DNA of 59,064 nucleotides from assembly GCA_019235245.1 (NCBI GenBank), contig JAFAKO010000099.1, forward strand, positions 1 through 59,064, in the 5' to 3' direction. This stretch comes from Gammaproteobacteria bacterium. Its GTDB lineage: Bacteria; Pseudomonadota; Gammaproteobacteria; Steroidobacterales; Steroidobacteraceae. Numbering within the stretch: position 1 is the first letter of the stretch; the number at the start of each line of letters is the position of its first letter. Made by a program: the position numbers and the translations under genes. Positions 13,588-50,174 of this stretch are shown in pieces. Below the pieces are notes generated by a model. The model was not told where the DNA came from. It saw nothing but the letters and a program-made list of their open reading frames with translations, and made no database searches.

Positions 13588-13896
13588 ATGGCCAATGAGT
13601 CTTCGCAACGTGGCGGCTCGGGCAACTTCGCCAACGACCCCGCTCGGGCGAGCGAGGCGGGCCGCAAGGGTGGCCAGCAGTCCGGCGGTAACTTCGCCAA
13701 CGACCCGCAGCGGGCGAGCGAGGCGGGCCGCAAGGGCGGTCAGCAGTCCGGTGGCAACTTCGCCAACGACCCGCAGCGTGCCAGCGAAGCCGGCCGCAAG
13801 GGCGGTCAGCAGTCCGGTGGCAATTTCGCCAACGACCCGCAGCGCGCCAGCGAAGCCGGCCGCAAGGGTGGAGCATCCCGGGGCGGCAATCGCTGA
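13588..13896 (+). CDS. KGG-repeat general stress protein (YciG-like)
   Basis: GGAGGTG RBS 5 nt upstream of ATG 13588. Four tandem 20-aa units GNFANDPxRASEAGRKGGQQSG. Confidence 0.85.
   Translation: MANESSQRGGSGNFANDPARASEAGRKGGQQSGGNFANDPQRASEAGRKGGQQSGGNFANDPQRASEAGRKGGQQSGGNFANDPQRASEAGRKGGASRGGNR
13621..13860 (+). repeat. four tandem 60-bp repeats inside the KGG-repeat gene
   Basis: Near-identical 60-bp units, differing mainly at synonymous positions. Confidence 0.9.
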
Positions 13897-13912
13897 GTCG
13901 TGACCCCTGTGA

Positions 13913-13941
13913 GCCGGCAGTCAGCGACTGGGGCTGCCGGC
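13913..13941. terminator. hairpin between convergent genes (candidate bidirectional terminator)
   Basis: GCCGGCAG (13913-13920) pairs with CTGCCGGC (13934-13941) around a 13-nt loop. It overlaps the permease stop codon. There is no clear U-tract. Confidence 0.4.
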
Positions 13942-15327
13942 GCGCGGGGCCGCGTACACGGTGGCGGCCGGGCGCCGGAAGACCAGGTAAGCGAGCAGCG
14001 CCACCGACATCGAGATCACACTGGTCCAGAACTCCGCCCGGTGCGAGGGCGTCACCGCCATGGCGATCAGCACCGCGAGCACGCCGGCGACCGCGAGGTA
14101 GCTCAGCCAGGGAAACATCCACATCGGCAGCGCCGGTACTGAGCCCGCCGCATCGCGGGCCTTGCGGGTGCGGATCTGCGAGACCGCGATCGCCAGGTAG
14201 ATCACGGCGATGATGGCGCCGGAGGAATTCACCAGGAAGGCGAACACCACGCTCGGCGACAGGATCGCCGCGATCACGCCCGCGAATCCGACCACGCTTG
14301 CAAGCAGCACCGCGCGGGCCGGTACGTGCCGTTTGTTGGTCCGCACCAGCCAACGCGGCGCATCGCCGCGGCTGGCGAGCACGAACAGCACGCGCGAGGC
14401 GATATAGAAGGATGAATTGAGGCACGACAGCACGGCGGTCAGGATCACCGCCGCCATGAAGGTGCTGGCGTATGGGAAGTGAATGTGGTCGAGAGCGAGT
14501 GTGAAGGGCGACTGCCCCGCCACCACCTCCGTCCAGGGCACGACGCAGGTGATCACGAAGATCGAGCCGACGTAGAAGATGACGATGCGGCTGATGATGC
14601 TCGAGGTCATGCGCGCGACCGCGCGTGCCGGCTCGGGCGATTCCGCAGCCGCGATCGTGACCACCTCCGCCCCCATCATCGACCAGATGACGGTGGTCAC
14701 CGCCGCCAGCACCGCGAACCAGCCGCGCGGTGCGAAGCCCCCGTACGCCGTGAGGGTCGAGAAGGTCGGCCCGGCCGGGGAGCGATAGCCGCAGGCATAG
14801 GCACCGACCGCGATGATGAACGTGATGATCGCCACCACCTTGATGGAGGAGAACCAGAACTCGAACTCGCCGTAGGCGCGGGCTGACATGAGGTTCACCG
14901 CCGTCATGAGCAGCATCAGCGCGGTGCCGATCTGCCAGGCGGGCCACGGCAGCCAGCGCTGGATGATGCCGGCGCCGGCGATCGCCTCGACCGGGATGAC
15001 GATCACCCAGAAGTACCAGTAGAGCCAGCCGATCGAGAACCCGGCCCAGTTACCGAGCGCGGCGCGCGTGAATTCCGTGAACGAGCGGACCTCCGGCATC
15101 TCCACGGCCATCTCGCCCAGCATGCGCATCACCAGCAGGATCAGCAACCCGGTGAGCACATAGCTCACGATGATCGCCGGCCCCGCCGCGGCGATGGCCA
15201 CACTGCTGCCGACGAACAGGCCCGCGCCGATGATGCCGCCGATGGTGATCATCGCCACGTGGCGCGGCCGCAGCGAGCGGCTGAGTGCGGGCTGATCCGC
15301 CGGCAGGGCGGCCGTGAGGTCATTCAT
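13921..15327 (-). CDS. amino acid permease (APC superfamily)
   Basis: Start at ATG 15327 (MNDLTAAL). RHVAMITIGGIIGAGLFVGSS signature and about 12 hydrophobic segments. Confidence 0.9.
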   Translation of the reverse strand: MNDLTAALPADQPALSRSLRPRHVAMITIGGIIGAGLFVGSSVAIAAAGPAIIVSYVLTGLLILLVMRMLGEMAVEMPEVRSFTEFTRAALGNWAGFSIGWLYWYFWVIVIPVEAIAGAGIIQRWLPWPAWQIGTALMLLMTAVNLMSARAYGEFEFWFSSIKVVAIITFIIAVGAYACGYRSPAGPTFSTLTAYGGFAPRGWFAVLAAVTTVIWSMMGAEVVTIAAAESPEPARAVARMTSSIISRIVIFYVGSIFVITCVVPWTEVVAGQSPFTLALDHIHFPYASTFMAAVILTAVLSCLNSSFYIASRVLFVLASRGDAPRWLVRTNKRHVPARAVLLASVVGFAGVIAAILSPSVVFAFLVNSSGAIIAVIYLAIAVSQIRTRKARDAAGSVPALPMWMFPWLSYLAVAGVLAVLIAMAVTPSHRAEFWTSVISMSVALLAYLVFRRPAATVYAAPRAGSPSR

Positions 15328-15362
15328 CGCACATCGAGTATACGGGCGATGGCGCGGCGCCG

Positions 15363-16013
15363 CTAACCGCCGAGCAGCCCCGCCGAGACATTCACGGCGA
15401 ACCCGAGGATCGACACGTTGAAGAGGAAGGAGATCAGCGTCTGCGCCGTGACCACGCGGCGGATGGCCAGGTGGCGTGTGTACACGTCCGATGTCTGGCA
15501 GGCGGCGGCGATGGTGAACGAGAAGTAGATGAAGTCTCCGAACACCGGCTGCGGCGTCTGCGGAAACTGCAGCGGCGGATCCTCCAGCGCGCGGTAGAAC
15601 ATGCTCGCGTAGTGGAGCGTGAACATGGTCGCAACGAGTATCCACGAGTCGACCACGGTCGCGGTCGCGAGCGACACGTGCAGCACTCGCTCGGTGCTCG
15701 TCGCGTGTTTGACGGTTGCCAGGAACGCCAGGATCGCGGCGAGACTTGCGACTGCCGCGATGGTCACGATGAGCAGGATGACCGGCGCCGAGGGATCATC
15801 GTCCTGGTAGCGGGCATGGATGCGCCGGGCGTCGAGACCGAGCATCCAGCTGTACACGAGGATGAGGAACAGCAGCACCCCGACGTTCCAGGCGGTCAGG
15901 AGCCGTGCCAGCAACGACCATTGCGCCGGGGCCGCGAGGAACATCACGACGCCGGCGATCGTCCCCAGCCAGAGCCTGGTGTGACGGACGGTGGCGTTAC
16001 GAAGGTGCCCCAA
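15363..16013 (-). CDS. DUF1345-family membrane protein
   Basis: The C-terminal 193 aa form a multi-pass membrane protein (FGDFIYFSFTIAAACQTSDV). The first TM begins before the first Met, so I prefer TTG 16013. The alternative ATG is at 15944. The 646-aa track ORF is an artefactual extension. Confidence 0.65.
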   Translation of the reverse strand: MGHLRNATVRHTRLWLGTIAGVVMFLAAPAQWSLLARLLTAWNVGVLLFLILVYSWMLGLDARRIHARYQDDDPSAPVILLIVTIAAVASLAAILAFLATVKHATSTERVLHVSLATATVVDSWILVATMFTLHYASMFYRALEDPPLQFPQTPQPVFGDFIYFSFTIAAACQTSDVYTRHLAIRRVVTAQTLISFLFNVSILGFAVNVSAGLLGG

Positions 16014-16151
16014 CGCATTTTTCCTGCCCGGGCGACGCCGGGAAGTGTAGCGGGTCGGCAGCCGGTGCGAACCCCGCGGCCGGCGAGGTTGCGGGGATCG
16101 CTCGCTGGTGAGTATGGTGGCCCTCCTTCCCCAGGCCAGGGAGACCGTGCC

Positions 16152-16988
16152 GTGTCCTCCACCAAGCGAACCCCGCTCGCACTGCTGCTGTTGTTGACCA
16201 TCGTCGCCGCTGCCGATGTCTGGGCTGCGGACGCCACCTCCGACGGGCTCGCTGCCGCGATCGCGAGCAACGCGCGCACCCCGAAATTCATCGCGCGCGA
16301 CAAGTACCGCCATCCGCTCGAGACCCTGCACTTCTTCGGGCTGCGGCCGGACCAGACGGTGGTGGAGATCTGGCCCGGCGGCGGATGGTACATGGAGATC
16401 CTCGCGCCGTATCTGCGCGATCACGGGCACTACTACGCCGCCATCGAGCCGCCGGAGCTGAGCAGCGACTCGAAGGAAGCCACGGAGTTGGCGGGCGTCA
16501 TCCGCAAGCGCATCGCGGACGACCCGACTCATTTCGGCAAGGTGACGGTCACGGAGTTGCACGCGCCGCAGCGCACCGAGATCTGCCCCGCGGGCACCGC
16601 GGACCTCGTGCTGACCTTCCGCAACGTGCACAACTGGATCGAGGAGGGCAACCAGCAGCAGCAGTTCGATGCCTTCTTCAAGGCGCTCAAGCCCGGCGGC
16701 GTCCTCGGGGTCGTCGAACACCGGGCAAAGCCCGGCGTCAGCCTCGCCGAGATGAACAAGTCCGGCTACGTCGATGAGGCCTACGTGAAGAAGCTCGCGA
16801 CCACGGCCGGCTTCAAGTTCGCCGGGGCGTCCCCGGTGAACGACAATCCGCGCGACACCAAGGACTATCCCAAGGGCGTGTGGACGCTGCCCCCGACGCT
16901 CACACTCGGTGACCAGGACCGGGAGAAGTACCTGGCGATCGGCGAGTCCGACCGCATGACGCTGAAATTCGTGAAGCCCGCAGGCTGA
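16152..16988 (+). CDS. class I SAM-dependent methyltransferase with N-terminal signal peptide
   Basis: GTG 16152 is preceded by GGGAGA. Signal peptide (LALLLLLTIVAAADVWA). VVEIWPGGGWY SAM-binding motif and LKPGGVLGVVEH motif. Confidence 0.8.
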   Translation: MSSTKRTPLALLLLLTIVAAADVWAADATSDGLAAAIASNARTPKFIARDKYRHPLETLHFFGLRPDQTVVEIWPGGGWYMEILAPYLRDHGHYYAAIEPPELSSDSKEATELAGVIRKRIADDPTHFGKVTVTELHAPQRTEICPAGTADLVLTFRNVHNWIEEGNQQQQFDAFFKALKPGGVLGVVEHRAKPGVSLAEMNKSGYVDEAYVKKLATTAGFKFAGASPVNDNPRDTKDYPKGVWTLPPTLTLGDQDREKYLAIGESDRMTLKFVKPAG

Positions 16989-43025: not shown

Positions 43026-44225
43026 TCAATGGCAGGCGTTTTTCGCGCCCTTGAGGAAGGGCGCGAGCGGCAGCCGCTCGACGGTGACTTCCTTGCCGGT
43101 CAGGACATTACGGCTGCGGGTGGTGCTCGCCATGAAGAGCGAATTGTAGATCGCCTCCTCGGTGGCTTCGGCGACCGCATGAAAGAGCGGCGAGATGGCA
43201 TCGTTCGAGAGCTCGGCGAACTGGGCAACGCCGGCGCGCTTCGCTGCCGATCGCACCACATCGGCCGCAGTCGAGAAGGCAATGACGTAGTCGCCTGAGC
43301 CGTTGGAGAAGCTCGAGCCCGTGCGGGCGATGCCGGACACCGCGCGCCGGGCGAGCCGCGCGAGATTCCGGTCCGAAAGCGGCGCGTCGGTGGCCACCAC
43401 CACCATGATCGAGCCATCGGCCCGCCGGTCGCCGAGCTTGTCCTGCAGGTAGTACTGGTGCAGCTCCTCGCCGATCCTGCGGCCAGCGACGCTCAACACG
43501 CCACCGTAGTTCGTCTGCACCAGCACCCCCACGGTCCAGCCGCCCGCGAGCGCCGGCACCCGGCGCGAGCTGGTGCCGATGCCGCCTTTCCAGCCGAAGG
43601 CGACGGTGCCGGTGCCGGCACCGACCGCGCCCTCCTCGACCGCGCCCGCGTGTGCGGACCTGATGGCGTCCAGGATCTGTGCCGGGGTGAGCGCTCGCCC
43701 GCGGATGTCGTTGAGATAGCCATCATTAGTCTCACCGACCACCGCATTGACCGACATGACCTTCTCGTTGCCGGGTTGCGCGAGCGTCCAGTCGAGAATC
43801 GCCTCCATTCCACGAGCGACCGCGAGTGTGTTGGTGAGTACGATCGGGGATTCGATCTCGCCGAGCTCCGCCACCTGGCTCAGGCCCGCCGACTTGCCAT
43901 AGCCGTTGAACACGAACACCGCGGCCGGCACCTTGCTCTGATACAGGTTCCCGCCGTGCGCAAGAATCGCGGTGGCACCGGTACGCACGGTGTCGCCCGC
44001 GATGAGAGTCGTGTGCCCGACGAGCACGCCGGCGACATCGGTGATGGCATTGAGCGGGCCCGGGGTGAGTATCCCCGGCGCGATTCCCAACTGGCGCGCC
44101 CGCACGTGATCGGATTCGCGGATGCATTGCGCGCCGGCGGTGCCGGCGAGCCCGAAAGTGAGCGCGGCGACGACCGGCGCGAGAAGCCGCGAGCGGAGCG
44201 GACGGGGTAATTGGTTGCAATTCAT
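43026..44225 (-). CDS. P1/S58 (DmpA-type) aminopeptidase family protein, exported
   Basis: ATG 44225 (MNCNQL..) with a signal peptide. NAITDVAGVLVGHTT, GETNDG and GAGTGTVAFGWKGGIGTSS motifs are typical of the DmpA/S58 family. Confidence 0.85.
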   Translation of the reverse strand: MNCNQLPRPLRSRLLAPVVAALTFGLAGTAGAQCIRESDHVRARQLGIAPGILTPGPLNAITDVAGVLVGHTTLIAGDTVRTGATAILAHGGNLYQSKVPAAVFVFNGYGKSAGLSQVAELGEIESPIVLTNTLAVARGMEAILDWTLAQPGNEKVMSVNAVVGETNDGYLNDIRGRALTPAQILDAIRSAHAGAVEEGAVGAGTGTVAFGWKGGIGTSSRRVPALAGGWTVGVLVQTNYGGVLSVAGRRIGEELHQYYLQDKLGDRRADGSIMVVVATDAPLSDRNLARLARRAVSGIARTGSSFSNGSGDYVIAFSTAADVVRSAAKRAGVAQFAELSNDAISPLFHAVAEATEEAIYNSLFMASTTRSRNVLTGKEVTVERLPLAPFLKGAKNACH

Positions 44226-44282
44226 GGATGCGCATCTCCTTACACATGCCCGGTAGCGGCGGGTTAAGATCGCGGTCCTAGG

Positions 44283-46607
44283 ATGGAGGAACCGAGCTCT
44301 GCACCGCCAGCCGAGTCGCCCGCGGCGGCCTTGCGGGCGCCGCCGGACGCGGCTGTGGGTCTGAACGCGCCGTTGCGTCTGCTCGGCCACGCCGTCGTGC
44401 AGCATCCGTGGCGGATTCTCGCGGTGTGGCTGATTGCGGTGCTCCTCGGCGCATGGGGAGCGCACCGGCTGCCACAGGTGACGCTCGGCGTCGAAGGCGG
44501 CGCACCCGGCAGTCCCTCCAAGCGCGCGACCGACGCGCTGCGCGATGACTTCAACAACCCCTTCATCGATCCGCTGGTGGTCGCCGTGAGCGCACCGCAT
44601 CTGCAGGTCGACGCCGCGCCGTACCTCGACTGGGTCAAGGAGACGGGCCGCGTACTAGCGGCGCTGCCCGGGATGCGCGACGTCCGCAGCTTTGCGGATG
44701 ACAAGGACACGCGGCTGCGCTCGCCCGATGGCCACGTGACCACCCTCCTGCTCGGGCTGCGCGCCACCAGCCACGCCGATCGGCAGCAGGCCGTAGTCGC
44801 AGTGCGCGCGAGTCTCACCCCGCGCCGCGCCGCACTGCTGGCGCTCGACTCCGCGGCGCAGGTGGCGGTGACCGGCAATGCCGCCGCCGACTTCGATGTG
44901 AACACCTGGAGTGCGCGCGGCGGAGATCGCGCTGAGAAACAGGCGCTGCCACTCACACTCGCGATCCTGCTGGTCGCCTTCGGCACGCTGGTCGCCGCAG
45001 GGCTGCCGTTCCTCACCGGCATCGCGACCACCACCGTCTCGCTCGGCAGCGCCTTCCTGCTGGCGGAGGTGATGCCGGTCTCGAACCTCCTCGGCAACGT
45101 CGTCACCATGATCGGGCTCGCGATCGGTATCGACTACTCGCTCCTCATGGTGACCTACTACCGTGAGCACGCCGAGTCGGCACCGGTTGCCGAGAGCGTC
45201 GTGGCAGCGGTCGCCCGCGGCGGGCGCACCATCGCCTGGTCCGGGGTGACCGTGATCATCGGACTCCTCGGCCTCCTGCTGAGCCCGCTCCTCGAGACCC
45301 GCACCGTCGGCATCGGTGGCGCGCTCGTCGTCTGTGTCTCGGTGCTCGCCGCGCTCACACTGCTGCCGGCAGCACTGACGCTGCTCGGGAGCCGCCTCGA
45401 GTGGCTGCCGGTCATTCCGCGGCACCGCGGCCGGCCGCGTCTGCTCGCCTTCTGGCGGCGGCTCGGCAGCTGGATCGTGCGCCATCCGTACATCACGCTG
45501 CTGCTGGCCGGTGGTGTGGTGCTCGCGCTGGCATCGCCACTGCTGCGGATCCGGACGAGCTTCGCCAACCAGCGCTGGTTCCTCCCGCCCGGCATGGAAT
45601 CGCGCCTGGGCGCGGACCTGGTCACGGCGGTGCGCGGCGACAACGCGGCGAACGCGATTTATCTCCTGGTACGGAGCGAGGACGGGCGGCCGGTCCTCGA
45701 TCCGGCGCATCTGCAGTCACTCTTCGACTACTCGGCATCGCTCGAGCGTGATGCGCGGGTCGGTGCCGTGAGCTCGCCGGTCAACCTGCAGGCCGGACTC
45801 GAGCCTGACGACTACCGCACGCTCTATGCGGACCCCGAGCAGGCGCTGAAGGACTACCCGGAGATCGGCCAGCTGTTCGTCAGCCGCGATCGGCGTGCAG
45901 CGCTCTTCGAGGTCACGCCCGCCGACCGCGCGAGTGCCGCGGACGTCCTGCATCTCTCGCGCGAGCTGCAGACTCGCGCGCCTGCCGGTGCGTTCAGCGT
46001 GCTGGTGACCGGCGCCGCGGCCGGCTACGACGACTTCAACAACGAGATGCTGCATAGCCTGCCGCGTATCTTCGCCTTCGTCGTCGGCGCAACACTGCTG
46101 ATGCTGTTCACCGCTTTCCGCTCCTTCCTGCTGCCGGTGAAGGCCGTGCTCATGAACCTGCTGGCCGTGGCCGCGGGTATGGGGGCGGTGGTGGCGATAT
46201 TTCAGCTCGGGTGGCTGAACGGTCTCATCGGGCTCGAGCACCCGGTCGCCTCCATACCGCTGGAGATACCGCTGATGGTGTTCTGCATGAGCTTCGGGCT
46301 GTCGATGGACTACGAGCTGTTCCTGCTGTTTCGCATCCAGCAGGAGTTCTACCGCGACGCAGACAACAATCGCGCCACGGTCGAGGGTCTCGCCAGCGTC
46401 GCACCCGTGATCACCGGCGCCGGGCTTATCATGGTGGTGGTGTTCGGGGCGTTCGTCGGCGCGGCGCTGCCGGTGCTCAAGATGATCGGCGTCGGCCTGT
46501 GCGTCGCCGTGCTGGTGGATGCGACCGTGGTGCGGGCACTGATCGTGCCCGCCGTGATGGCGCTCGCCGGCCGCTGGAACTGGTACCCGGGAAGGCGGCC
46601 GGTGTAG
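44283..46607 (+). CDS. MMPL-family (RND superfamily) membrane transporter
   Basis: 774 aa. Two blocks of hydrophobic segments are separated by soluble loops. GIDYSLLMV and GLSMDYELFLLFRIQQE motifs are typical of the MMPL family. Confidence 0.85.
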   Translation: MEEPSSAPPAESPAAALRAPPDAAVGLNAPLRLLGHAVVQHPWRILAVWLIAVLLGAWGAHRLPQVTLGVEGGAPGSPSKRATDALRDDFNNPFIDPLVVAVSAPHLQVDAAPYLDWVKETGRVLAALPGMRDVRSFADDKDTRLRSPDGHVTTLLLGLRATSHADRQQAVVAVRASLTPRRAALLALDSAAQVAVTGNAAADFDVNTWSARGGDRAEKQALPLTLAILLVAFGTLVAAGLPFLTGIATTTVSLGSAFLLAEVMPVSNLLGNVVTMIGLAIGIDYSLLMVTYYREHAESAPVAESVVAAVARGGRTIAWSGVTVIIGLLGLLLSPLLETRTVGIGGALVVCVSVLAALTLLPAALTLLGSRLEWLPVIPRHRGRPRLLAFWRRLGSWIVRHPYITLLLAGGVVLALASPLLRIRTSFANQRWFLPPGMESRLGADLVTAVRGDNAANAIYLLVRSEDGRPVLDPAHLQSLFDYSASLERDARVGAVSSPVNLQAGLEPDDYRTLYADPEQALKDYPEIGQLFVSRDRRAALFEVTPADRASAADVLHLSRELQTRAPAGAFSVLVTGAAAGYDDFNNEMLHSLPRIFAFVVGATLLMLFTAFRSFLLPVKAVLMNLLAVAAGMGAVVAIFQLGWLNGLIGLEHPVASIPLEIPLMVFCMSFGLSMDYELFLLFRIQQEFYRDADNNRATVEGLASVAPVITGAGLIMVVVFGAFVGAALPVLKMIGVGLCVAVLVDATVVRALIVPAVMALAGRWNWYPGRRPV

Positions 46608-46621
46608 CGGCGGAGGATTCG

Positions 46622-47425
46622 ATGGCAGCGGTGCGCGCGGCGGCGGTGGCTGGAATGTTCTACCCGCAGTCCCCGGCGGAGCTCGGCGCCCAGGTTCGTG
46701 CCTGCCTCGGGTCTGTGGCGCCGCCGACCGAGAACGCGGCGCGCGCCAAGGCACTCATCGTGCCACATGCGGGGTACGTGTATTCGGGCCCGATTGCCGC
46801 CAGCGGCTACCGTCGCCTGGCCGAATGGCAGGCAGACGTTCAGCGCGTGGTGTTGCTCGGTCCCTCGCACCGCGTGCCGCTCGCCGGGCTCGCGGCTCCC
46901 AGCGTCGACGCATTCGCCACCCCGCTCGGTGAGGTCGAGCTGGACCGCGGCGCGCTGGCGCGCGCGCTGGCCCTGCCGCAGGTCACCGAGAGCGACGCCG
47001 CCCATGCACGCGAGCACTCGCTCGAGGTACAGCTGCCCTTTCTGCAGGCGCTGCTGCCGAGCTTCCGTCTCGTCCCCTTCGCCGTAGGCGATGCGACCCC
47101 CGCGCAGGTGGCGGAAGTGATCGAGCTGCTGTGGGATGGACCCGAGACTCTCATCGTCATAAGTTCGGACCTCTCCCACTACCACCGCTACGAGGAGGCG
47201 CGCACGATCGACCGGTCGAGCGCCAAGAGCGTGCTGGCACTATCACCCACCCTAGGCTACGAGCAGGCCTGCGGAGCGGTGCCGATCAACGGGCTTCTCA
47301 CCGTCGCGCGGCATCACCGGATGAAGGTCGAGATGCTCGATCTGCGCAGCTCCGGCGATACCGCCGGCGATCGGCTGCGCGTAGTCGGCTACGGCTCCTT
47401 CGCATTCAGCGAGGCACCCGCGTGA
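46622..47425 (+). CDS. amrB: AmmeMemoRadiSam system protein B (MEMO1-like)
   Basis: GGAGGA RBS; ATG 46622 lies 14 nt after the MMPL stop. AVAGMFYP, IVPHAGYVYSG, EHSLEVQLPFLQ and SSDLSHY motifs are characteristic of the Memo family. Confidence 0.85.
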   Translation: MAAVRAAAVAGMFYPQSPAELGAQVRACLGSVAPPTENAARAKALIVPHAGYVYSGPIAASGYRRLAEWQADVQRVVLLGPSHRVPLAGLAAPSVDAFATPLGEVELDRGALARALALPQVTESDAAHAREHSLEVQLPFLQALLPSFRLVPFAVGDATPAQVAEVIELLWDGPETLIVISSDLSHYHRYEEARTIDRSSAKSVLALSPTLGYEQACGAVPINGLLTVARHHRMKVEMLDLRSSGDTAGDRLRVVGYGSFAFSEAPA

Positions 47426-47997
47426 TCGACCTCGACCTCGGGCGCGCGGTGCTCACTCTCGCCCGCTCGGCCATCGCCGAGCAGCTGGGCATCGGACGGC
47501 TCGAGGCCATGAGCCATGCGACACTCGAGCAGCCTTCCTCGACGTTCGTGACCTTGCGGCAGGCCGGTCAGCTGCGCGGCTGTGTCGGCTCGTTGCACCG
47601 TCTGCGGACGCTGCGCGATGACGTGCGCGCCAATGCCGTCGCGGCGGCCTTCCGCGACCCGCGCTTTGGCCCGCTCGAGGCGAGCGAGCTGCCGCAGACC
47701 TCGGTCGAGGTGTCACTGCTCTCGGTGAACGAGCCGATCGAGGCAGCCTCCGAGGATGAGCTGATCAGCCGTCTGCGCCCGGGGCTCGATGGGGTGACGC
47801 TCGAGTACGGCGGCCACCGCGCCACGCTTCTCCCGCAGGTGTGGCACCAGCTGCCCGAGGCGCGCGACTTTCTCGCCGCCTTGAAGATCAAGGCCGGGCT
47901 TGCGGAGGATTTCTGGAGCAGCGGCGTGAGGGTGAGCCGCTACGGAGTCGTGACCTGGAAGGAGCCCGACCCCTTGAAGCCCGAATCCAGCCACTGA
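47422..47997 (+). CDS. amrA: AmmeMemoRadiSam system protein A (AMMECR1 domain)
   Basis: GTG overlaps the amrB stop (GTGA). LRGCVGS core motif and DPRF are typical of AMMECR1. Confidence 0.85.
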   Translation: MIDLDLGRAVLTLARSAIAEQLGIGRLEAMSHATLEQPSSTFVTLRQAGQLRGCVGSLHRLRTLRDDVRANAVAAAFRDPRFGPLEASELPQTSVEVSLLSVNEPIEAASEDELISRLRPGLDGVTLEYGGHRATLLPQVWHQLPEARDFLAALKIKAGLAEDFWSSGVRVSRYGVVTWKEPDPLKPESSH

Positions 47998-48000
47998 CCG

Positions 48001-49113
48001 CTAGCGCTCGGTGAGCCGCACGGCGACGCGACGCGCGCCCCACTTGCCCGGAGCTCCCGCAAACCTGCCGGAAATCTGCGTGCCGCACCGATCGCAGGCG
48101 CCCGAATTGGTGAGTTTCCAGCTGAGCAGCTGATACCAGTCGCGCTCGATGACACACGCGCCGCAGCCCGGGCAATGAGTGCTGCCGCCCGCGACGTCGT
48201 GCACGTTACCCGTGTAGACGAAATGCAGGCCGTTGGCGAGCGCGATGCGCCGTGCGCCTGTGAGCGTCGCCGGCGGCGTCCGCGGCCTGTCGAGCATCTT
48301 CCAGTCCGGGTGGAACGCGGTGAAATGCAACGGCACGTCCGGCCCGAGCTTTGCCGCGATCCATTGGGTCATCCGGTCGATCTCGGGATCGCTGTCGTTC
48401 TCTCCCGGGATGAGGAGCGTCGTGATCTCGAACCATACGCGCGTCTCGTGCCTGAGGTACTCGAGCGTCTCGAGCACCGGCGCGAGCTCGCCCCCGCAGA
48501 CCTTATAGTAGAAGCGCTCGGTGAAGGCCTTCAGATCGACGTTCGCGGCATCCATGTGCCGGTAGAACTCGCGGCGCGGCGCCTCGCACATGTAGCCGGC
48601 CGTCACCGCGACGCTGCGGACTCCCGCGGCGCGGCAGGCCTCTGCGGTATCGATCGCGTACTCCATGAAAACGACCGGGTCGTTGTAGGTGAAGGCGATA
48701 CTGGCACAGCCCAGCCGGCGCGCCGCCGCAGCGAGTGCCTCGGGGCTGGCGCTGTCGGCGAGCGTGTCCATTTCGCGCGACTTGGACATGTCCCAGTTCT
48801 GACAGAACTTGCAGGCGAGATTGCAGCCGGCGGTGCCGAAGGACAGCACACTGGTGCCCGGCAGAAAATGATTGAGCGGTTTCTTCTCGATCGGATCGAC
48901 ACAGAAGCCGCTCGAGCGGCCGTAGCTGAAGAGCTTGATCGCGCCGTCTGCGGCGCCCCGCACGAAGCAGAGCCCGCGCTGGCCGTCGCGCAGCTTGCAG
49001 GCCCGCGGGCACACATCGCACTGCACCCGCCCGTCTTCGAGCGTGTGCCAGTAGCGGGTCTCCATGACGGAGGGATCTGCGACGCTGCGCACGGACGTCG
49101 CCGGCGTGTCCAT
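48001..49113 (-). CDS. amrS: AmmeMemoRadiSam system radical SAM enzyme
   Basis: N-terminal Cys cluster CDVCPRAC and radical SAM CNLACKFCQNW (CxxxCxxC). ATG 49113 preferred over GTG 49128. Its stop lies 3 nt from the amrA stop on the opposite strand. Confidence 0.9.
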   Translation of the reverse strand: MDTPATSVRSVADPSVMETRYWHTLEDGRVQCDVCPRACKLRDGQRGLCFVRGAADGAIKLFSYGRSSGFCVDPIEKKPLNHFLPGTSVLSFGTAGCNLACKFCQNWDMSKSREMDTLADSASPEALAAAARRLGCASIAFTYNDPVVFMEYAIDTAEACRAAGVRSVAVTAGYMCEAPRREFYRHMDAANVDLKAFTERFYYKVCGGELAPVLETLEYLRHETRVWFEITTLLIPGENDSDPEIDRMTQWIAAKLGPDVPLHFTAFHPDWKMLDRPRTPPATLTGARRIALANGLHFVYTGNVHDVAGGSTHCPGCGACVIERDWYQLLSWKLTNSGACDRCGTQISGRFAGAPGKWGARRVAVRLTER

Positions 49114-49187
49114 GGCGCGATTATGCACCCGCCGCCAGGCGAGCGTTCATGGCACACTCGCGCACCTTACGAGGAGTTAACTCCAGC

Positions 49188-49652
49188 ATGCCCCTCGTTA
49201 GTGCCGGACTGCTTCTCTATCGTCGCCGCGGGTCGGTTGTGGAGGTGTTTCTCGTGCACCCGGGTGGGCCGTTGTGGGCGAGGAAGGACGATGGCGCCTG
49301 GTCGGTGCCGAAGGGCCTCGTGAATGCCGGGGAGGAGGAGCTCGCCTGCGCGCGGCGCGAATTCCGGGAAGAGACCGGCTTCGAGGCGCCGCCTCAGGGC
49401 ACCGAGCTCGACCTTGGGATCCACCGCCAGCCGAGCGGCAAGCGGCTCCACGTGTGGGCGATGGAAGGCGACTGCGACGCCAGCCGGCTGAGCAGCAACC
49501 TCTTCGAGATGGAGTGGCCACCGAGATCCGGGCGCACCGCGCGCTTTCCCGAAGTCGACCGCGGCGAGTGGTTCGATCGCGCGCAGGCGCTCACCAAGGT
49601 CGCTGCCGGGCAGCGACCGGTCATCGAGCGGCTCTACGAGGAGCTGGGCTGA
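49188..49652 (+). CDS. NUDIX hydrolase
   Basis: GAGGAG RBS. Nudix box GLVNAGEEELACARREFREETGF. Confidence 0.85.
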   Translation: MPLVSAGLLLYRRRGSVVEVFLVHPGGPLWARKDDGAWSVPKGLVNAGEEELACARREFREETGFEAPPQGTELDLGIHRQPSGKRLHVWAMEGDCDASRLSSNLFEMEWPPRSGRTARFPEVDRGEWFDRAQALTKVAAGQRPVIERLYEELG

Positions 49653-49736: not shown

Positions 49737-50174
49737 CTACGCGGCGTGTTGGCGCACCCAGCGCACGATGTCGGTTTTGGAAAGCGCACCCGACTGACGT
49801 GCGACCTCCCGCCCTCCCCTGAACAACGCCAGGGTTGGAATGCTGCGGATCTGGAACTCGGTCGCGATGGCAGTCTCTACATCCGTGTTGACCTTCGCGA
49901 GACGCACGCTGGGCTCGAGCTCTGCGGCGGCCGCGTCGTACTGCGGGGCCATCATCTGGCAGGGACCGCACCATGGCGCCCAGAAATCCACCACGACGGG
50001 GACATCGCTGTGCCCCACCTGCCGGCGGAAGCTCGAGGTGCTGAGCTCGAGCGGATGGCCGGTAAAGAGCGCCTGGTGGCAGTGGCCGCACCGTGGCGTC
50101 TCGCCGAGCCGCGCGGCGGTCACGCGGTTGATCTTCTCGCAGTGAGGACAGACGACGTGCAATGCATCGCTCAT
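49737..50174 (-). CDS. trxC: thioredoxin 2 (zinc-finger N-terminal extension)
   Basis: N-terminal CPHC..CGHC zinc-binding pairs plus the WAPWCGPC active site. Confidence 0.9.
   Translation of the reverse strand: MSDALHVVCPHCEKINRVTAARLGETPRCGHCHQALFTGHPLELSTSSFRRQVGHSDVPVVVDFWAPWCGPCQMMAPQYDAAAAELEPSVRLAKVNTDVETAIATEFQIRSIPTLALFRGGREVARQSGALSKTDIVRWVRQHAA

Follow-up and report, generated by a model that had tools for sequence, protein, structure and literature searches.

The DNA considered here is a 59,064-nt stretch from a member of the Steroidobacteraceae (Gammaproteobacteria; assembly GCA_019235245.1, contig JAFAKO010000099.1, positions 1-59,064 of the forward strand), referred to below as the window. 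Three of its genes, amrB (Memo-like), amrA (AMMECR1-like) and amrS (a radical S-adenosylmethionine (SAM) enzyme), are an ordinary member of the known AmmeMemoRadiSam system and lie directly behind the gene of an MMPL-family RND transporter. With a probability of roughly 0.75, the triad is a self-contained unit that arrived by horizontal transfer, entered an older gene block at the spacer separating its MMPL and NUDIX hydrolase genes, and has no functional tie to the MMPL. An earlier note on this DNA had proposed a role of the system in making or modifying a hydrophobic molecule for export. This proposal is unsupported: none of 80 amr loci from other genomes contains an MMPL gene, and amr genes are missing beside the outgroup MMPLs as well as from two related loci, L088 and L100.

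Distribution of the MMPL-amr linkage

The linkage of MMPL and amr genes is common to about two dozen metagenome contigs, all of which belong to one subclade and share a wider synteny. In L005 and L006/L007, whose MMPLs are 84% and 79% identical to that of the window, respectively, the MMPL, Memo and AMMECR1 genes are arranged with a convergent radical SAM gene as in the window, and the surrounding block has SGL upstream and NUDIX, TrxC, LEA_2, Pirin and MsrB downstream. The MMPL-amrB-amrA junction is also present independently in metagenome contig L134, where the proteins are 99-100% identical to those of the window.

A neighbor-joining (NJ) tree was calculated from near-full-length MMPL proteins, with 47 metagenome loci joined to those collected earlier. 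All of the amr-bearing loci form one clade, having 73-84% identity to the window MMPL, and every outgroup (61-73% identity) lacks amr genes. L088 and L100 are nested within the amr-bearing clade. Both retain the order S58-MMPL-NUDIX-TrxC...Pirin-MsrB-LMF1, with 15 nt between the MMPL stop and the NUDIX ATG in place of the 2.58 kb found in the window. In L088, which is another Steroidobacteraceae metagenome-assembled genome with a 76% identical MMPL and no amr genes in the shared block, the complete order is S9-like, PPK2, SGL, S58, MMPL, NUDIX, TrxC, SDR, LEA_2, OsmC, Pirin, MsrB and LMF1.

The junction itself varies within the clade. The window, L005/L090 and L134 have 14 nt between the MMPL stop and the amrB start, and the other members have 28, 56, 96-170 or 836-950 nt. 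Tight operon spacing is not conserved among these loci. The longest gaps, found in about ten loci, accommodate an extra open reading frame (ORF) of 232-248 aa. Examples of this ORF are L095:5163-5861 (+) and L112:6119-6865 (+), which are conserved at the protein level between the two loci and have no Pfam match. The amrS gene is mostly convergent with amrBA and is co-directional in L093, L106, L110 and L118. Because both the gap length and the orientation of amrS vary, the 14-nt coupling of the window is one variant of a plastic junction.

amr loci in other lineages

To survey the neighborhoods of amr genes, 37 diverse AmrS sequences were aligned and the alignment was used to search GTDB, with one genome per species. 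At least 599 matches were obtained, and the sample consists of the best 80 loci; their flanks, of up to 10 kb per side, amount to 1.3 Mb. It spans the Gamma-, Beta- and Alphaproteobacteria, Thermoanaerobaculia, Nitrospirota, Gemmatimonadota, Planctomycetota, Actinomycetota, Chloroflexota and one archaeon, and includes three further Steroidobacteraceae (L008-L010).

The earlier note had named, as a result that would speak against its proposal, a linkage unique to this genome with no enrichment elsewhere. The linkage is not unique, being shared by the clade, but its enrichment elsewhere was not found: in the comparison of neighborhoods that the note had suggested, none of the 80 diverse amrS loci had an MMPL gene. 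In a tblastn search of these loci the window MMPL had no match at E <= 1e-6. A hidden Markov model (HMM) built from 120 MMPL homologs had none even at E <= 10, and as a positive control scored above 1300 bits on the MMPLs of the window and of L001. Of 28 large multi-transmembrane ORFs flagged near amr genes, ten of the largest were compared with Pfam. They are Na/H exchangers, permeases, MscS, OPT, SNF, MgtC-DUF4010 and similar proteins, and none is of the RND type. All of the linked loci fall into the one MMPL subclade, and no MMPL-amr adjacency was found in phylogenetically independent lineages. As the adjacency is limited to one subclade, where it probably arose by insertion into an older block, it says little about the function of the amr genes.

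No other recurrent neighbor was detected. All-against-all clustering of the 5017 ORFs in the sample gave, beyond the triad, no family present in more than eight of the 80 loci. The commonest extra families, found in 5-8 loci each, have representatives that resemble, by eye, GGDEF-EAL, RidA, aldehyde dehydrogenase, RpoD, Gmk, SpoT and RecG, and reflect ordinary local synteny. Hopanoid or isoprenoid genes were not found near any of the 80 amrS genes.

The gene order is also different from that of the window. Elsewhere amrS is divergent from amrB-amrA, or the genes are co-directional in the order B-A-S or S-B-A. In L008-L010, amrS is divergent from amrB-amrA at a different locus that lacks the MMPL. 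The convergent arrangement was seen in the clade of the window only.

Two betaproteobacterial amrB-amrA-amrS operons have a protein with MgtC and DUF4010 domains encoded directly upstream of amrB (L071:1808-3838 and L085:6679-8655). This protein was considered as an analogous membrane partner of amr and rejected; it is complete only in these two loci, and L082 has a partial, N-terminal match.

Mosaic origin of the triad

The three proteins of the window differ in their closest relatives. AmrS is 75-78% identical to the proteins of Steroidobacteraceae L008-L010 and 64% identical to that of the betaproteobacterial locus L072, in which amrB, amrA and amrS are co-directional. For AmrB the corresponding values are 50% and 70%, and for AmrA 44-47% and 59%. 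With a betaproteobacterial-like amrBA pair and a Steroidobacteraceae-type amrS, the triad is a mosaic that arose by horizontal transfer and later recombination. A comparison within the clade is similar. L093 and L095 have AmrB and AmrA proteins that are 99% identical, and differ in the type and orientation of amrS: the AmrS of L093 is encoded co-directionally and is 79% identical to that of L072, whereas the L095 gene is convergent and of the Steroidobacteraceae type. This suggests that one amrBA pair can receive amrS copies from different lineages. Judged from these identities, the simplest account would be that the ancestor of the subclade received a betaproteobacterial-type operon downstream of its MMPL gene, and that amrS was exchanged and inverted later.

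In many amrS genes of the clade the CX3CX2C motif is interrupted by an intein, always between F108 and C109, and the third cluster ligand of AmrS is the +1 Cys of the intein junction. The intein is either large (about 443 aa, with LAGLIDADG matches) in L006 (amrS gene at 13829-16315, -), L007, L092, L095, L121 and L129, or a mini intein of about 163 aa in L106, L110 and L118. No intein was found in the AmrS of the window, L005/L090, L112 or any of the 80 GTDB loci. Gene conversion driven by homing is a plausible cause of the amrS exchanges.

The MMPL and its relatives without amr

The proteins closest to the window MMPL come from uncultured Steroidobacteraceae and soil metagenomes. Its orthologs, at 61-84% identity, occur both beside amr genes and without them. 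Homologs at 71-72% identity are found in other contexts that lack amr. At 61-70% identity the MMPL gene is divergent to a cluster encoding a CDP-alcohol phosphatidyltransferase, HalD, LPG_synthase_TM, NTP_transf_3 and Omp85. The MMPL genes of L001, L105 and L116 (69-73%) also adjoin genes for HpnA-like, HpnG, SHC, SQS_PSY, polyprenyl synthase and HpnH proteins. Loci with the CDP-alcohol phosphatidyltransferase/Omp85 cluster include L001:5284-19876, L002:5373-12259, L105, L115, L116, L117, L131, L133 and L135. The cluster, with or without the hopanoid genes, looks like an uncharacterized module for the synthesis and export of an envelope lipid.

The MMPL of the window has the PF03176 domains and about 12 predicted transmembrane segments, like the RND lipid exporters of the MmpL/HpnN type. 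Unlike them, it is detached from lipid biosynthesis genes and falls below the equivalog cut-offs, scoring 191.5 bits against the MmpL3 model NF052608 (cut-off 1400) and 39.7 bits against the HpnN model TIGR03480 (cut-off 751.85). The hopanoid and phospholipid proteins of L001 have no homologs in the 59-kb window apart from the MMPL. A hopanoid link of amr was rejected on these grounds, the homologs being missing also from the flanks of the 80 amrS loci. The MMPL is older than the amr insertion and has its own role, independent of amr.

Organization of the locus

The coordinates of the genes are given in Table 1. The three amr genes are clustered within 46622-49113. The GTG start of amrA at 47422 shares 4 nt (GTGA) with the TGA stop of amrB, and 3 nt lie between the stops of amrA and amrS. 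All that the earlier note had read from the letters holds. The junction sequence bears out an amrB gene that begins 14 nt past the MMPL stop behind its own GGAGGA, the GTG overlap of amrA, and a convergent amrS with CNLACKFC and CDVCPRAC motifs. Its gene identities are likewise confirmed, all three amr products scoring above the NCBIfam cut-offs (99 bits for TIGR04335, 26 for TIGR04336 and 220 for TIGR04337; that of PF03176 is 20.5), as are its divergent S58 peptidase and NUDIX flanks.

Table 1. Genes and spacers around the triad in the window
Feature	Coordinates	Strand	Remarks
Peptidase S58 (DmpA-like)	43026..44225	-	PF03576, 377.5 bits; divergent from MMPL; backbone gene
MMPL-family RND transporter, 774 aa	44283..46607	+	PF03176, 270.1 bits in two stretches; TAG stop at 46605-46607
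MMPL-amrB spacer, 14 nt	46608..46621	+	GGAGGA at 46612-46617; left edge of putative insert
amrB (Memo-like, system protein B)	46622..47425	+	ATG start, TGA stop; TIGR04336, 270.6 bits; PF01875, 182 bits
amrA (AMMECR1-like, system protein A)	47422..47997	+	TIGR04335, 183.2 bits; PF01871, 144 bits
amrS (radical SAM enzyme)	48001..49113	-	TIGR04337, 649.1 bits; convergent with amrA
Putative insert, amrB-amrA-amrS with spacers, 2.58 kb	46608..49187		15-nt spacer instead in L088 and L100
NUDIX hydrolase, 154 aa	49188..49652	+	PF00293, 54.9 bits; backbone gene; start revised to ATG 49188 (probable)
Thioredoxin 2 (TrxC)	49737..50174	-	NF008229, 147.9 bits; backbone gene; syntenic in L005, L006 and L088

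Three of the starts required attention. The public gene call for the MMPL begins 24 codons further in (750 aa); a length of 774 aa is plausible, since relatives align from residue 1. For amrS, homologs favor the ATG at 49113 (370 aa); the frame also has an open GTG at 49128. Comparison with L088, L005 and L006 places the probable start of the NUDIX gene at the ATG at 49188 rather than at 49149; the N-terminus of its product is MPAISAGLLLYRR in L088, where it directly follows the MMPL, and MPLVSAGLLLYRR in the window. With both revised starts, the divergent intergenic region between amrS and NUDIX is 74 nt.

Low-information scans for promoter and terminator consensus sequences, covering 43900-49400 and the 170-nt L006 spacer, gave no terminator-like or other useful site, and the RNA of the L006 spacer folds no better than shuffled sequence. 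Given the 14-nt gap and the lack of a terminator-like site in these scans, co-transcription of MMPL, amrB and amrA in the window genome is plausible. It would be explained by the geometry of the insertion alone.

L088 and many metagenome loci have the S58 peptidase gene in the corresponding place. The backbone between 36819 and 55632 is rich in genes connected with stress and redox processes: pyridine-nucleotide disulfide oxidoreductase, PPK2, SMP-30/gluconolactonase, NUDIX, thioredoxin 2, HAD dehalogenase, LEA_2, Pirin, MsrB, SDR and DCC1-LMF1. In relatives, OsmC, HSP20, ChaB and Usp are added to this set.

Proteins of the triad

The window locus resembles other AmmeMemoRadiSam systems (TIGR04335/TIGR04336/TIGR04337) in having three adjacent genes, scores well past the cut-offs and intact catalytic motifs. 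It differs from them in its order, with amrB-amrA convergent with amrS, and in its mosaic origin. Neither the PDB nor the literature searched yielded a characterized member with an assigned activity, and in the literature checked the name of the system occurs in annotation lists only.

The CNLACKFC motif of AmrS (C102/C106/C109, CX3CX2C) is nearly invariant across 37 sequences. The same is true of the N-terminal CX2CX3C...C motif, formed by CDVCPRAC (C37/C40/C44) and the invariant C54. AmrS also has a conserved C-terminal four-Cys motif (C319/C322/C345/C348), which the earlier note does not mention. The AlphaFold2 model of AmrS has a pLDDT of 92.3. Its top structural match in Foldseek is 3CB8, pyruvate formate-lyase (PFL)-activating enzyme bound to its peptide substrate (E 7e-14, target-normalized TM-score 0.79), and the next radical SAM enzyme has an E value of 5e-8. 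PFL-activating enzyme (PflA; 3C8F/3CB8) is also the best sequence match to the AmrS core (E 5e-6) and shares the CX3CX2C motif. Unlike it, AmrS has the N-terminal CX2CX3C...C motif and the C-terminal four-Cys ribbon, is about 125 residues longer and is only 16% identical. The scores of AmrS with the models of glycyl-radical activases, 51.5 bits for TIGR02493 (cut-off 231.75) and 42.8 bits for TIGR02494 (cut-off 174.35), lie below the cut-offs. In the annotated surroundings of the triad, to which the scan was limited, no glycyl-radical enzyme was found.

In AmrB, residues H49, H83, H132, D183, H186 and C217 are conserved in 62 homologs. The closest solved relative is human MEMO1 (3BCZ, 7KQ8) of the class III extradiol dioxygenase (PCAD-Memo) superfamily, with which AmrB aligns over residues 4-190 and shares the H/H/D/H positions of the metal site and C217. 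Unlike MEMO1, AmrB is a bacterial operon form, scoring 170.7 bits against the cut-off of 295 of the MEMO1-family equivalog.

AmrA has conserved RGCVG (G53 C54 G56) and DPRF (D79 R81 F82) motifs. It aligns end to end with the AMMECR1 homologs PH0010 (1VAJ), ST0229 (1WSC) and MM0484 (1ZQ7), which share RGCxG and DxRF and, unlike AmrA, are stand-alone archaeal structures whose role in RNA base modification is predicted only. Balaji and Aravind (PMC2034487) proposed RNA base modification for the AMMECR1 family, with RGCxG/DxRF as the active site, and noted its link to radical SAM enzymes and dioxygenases.

AmrS, AmrA and AmrB are fused in this order into single chains of 900-1150 aa in P0123, P0124, P0127, P0128, P0135 and P0143. 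These triple fusions contain no membrane domain. AmrS-like domains are also found fused to DsbD_2, FMN_bind and Fer4_5 (P0182) and to beta-propeller repeats (P0254).

Interpretation

These observations suggest the following scheme. In an uncultured soil subclade of the Steroidobacteraceae, the triad would have been inserted between the MMPL and NUDIX genes, both belonging to the older stress/redox block. Because the insertion would have left a gap of 14 nt between the MMPL stop and amrB, amrBA is probably read through from the MMPL promoter. AmrS would be a PFL-activase-like enzyme that cleaves SAM at the [4Fe-4S] cluster of CX3CX2C and takes a hydrogen atom from a substrate. The substrate may be held in the cleft of AmrA beside the invariant Cys of RGCxG, and could be AmrA itself or a bound macromolecule. 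AmrB might act next, in a metal-dependent follow-up step at its Memo-type His/His/Asp/His/Cys metal site. AmrS, AmrA and AmrB would thus work together in 1:1:1 stoichiometry, and their substrate would be a common intracellular one rather than a specialized exported metabolite. A common intracellular substrate is argued for since the amr neighborhoods show no transporter, regulator or precursor gene.

Several points weigh against this interpretation. The adjacency of MMPL and amrBA is always co-directional across a clade in which the MMPLs have diverged by up to about 25%, and its retention may not be neutral. The polarity of the difference in L088 and L100, whether loss of the triad or its never having been gained, rests on one NJ tree. 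The 80 amrS loci are those closest to the window AmrS rather than a random sample or a census, and a single archaeon is among them. The probable read-through from MMPL into amrBA is judged from gene spacing, and the steps proposed for AmrA, AmrB and AmrS are drawn from folds, motifs and fusions.

The first point would be accounted for if amrBA, possibly together with amrS, had been recruited after the insertion to work with the MMPL in this clade, for instance in modifying an exported lipid such as a hopanoid or another isoprenoid. The 14-nt coupling in the window, L005, L090 and L134 and the co-directional position of amrBA downstream of the MMPL throughout the clade are consistent with such a recruitment, and distant MMPL orthologs do adjoin hopanoid and phospholipid-headgroup genes. 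Burroughs et al. reportedly tied Memo contexts to the modification of aliphatic isoprenoids in 2019. We consider such a recruitment unlikely, however. The spacing ranges from 14 to 950 nt and about ten loci have an unrelated ORF between the genes; the MMPL is kept without amr in L088 and L100; and homologs of the L001 set of lipid and isoprenoid genes are found neither in the 59-kb window nor near the 80 amrS loci. Moreover, as the whole surrounding block is syntenic, the MMPL-amr adjacency alone carries no extra weight.

It is rather unlikely, too, that the cassette has been kept in a stress/redox island for expression under the same stress, the genes being co-regulated with no biochemical link to the MMPL. 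The backbone with PPK2, NUDIX, TrxC, LEA_2, Pirin and MsrB, and with OsmC and HSP20 in relatives, would fit a shared stress response, as would the description of Memo-family proteins as metal-dependent redox proteins in passages of the MEMO1 literature (PMC11081632). Against this, amr genes are found in unrelated contexts in other lineages.

A still less probable version of the recruitment has amrBA captured into the MMPL transcript and the triad modifying an isoprenoid-type envelope lipid exported by the MMPL in this subclade. It is extremely improbable that AmmeMemoRadiSam systems in general depend on an RND/MMPL exporter for a hydrophobic product: the arrangement favoring this is confined to one clade, but none of the 80 loci carries an MMPL or other RND-type gene in its 10-kb flanks, the triple fusions lack a membrane domain, and housekeeping genes dominate the amr neighborhoods.

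Significance

Conservation of Memo and AMMECR1 extends from archaea to humans, and both have been linked to disease; we know of no reaction catalyzed by either. Had the tie to a lipid exporter been real, a concrete substrate class could have been tested for these proteins, and if the triad did modify a lipid together with the MMPL, the clade would be the first tractable place in which to look for their substrate. If, as we consider most probable, the triad is a self-contained insertion, its tie to the MMPL is a local accident, unfit to guide lipidomics or to annotate amr genes as lipid-related. What remains useful is the triad itself, which has no recurrent partner in 80 loci, occurs as AmrS-AmrA-AmrB fusions and appears to tolerate exchange of amrS, and in which the radical SAM core of AmrS is most like that of a protein-directed activase.

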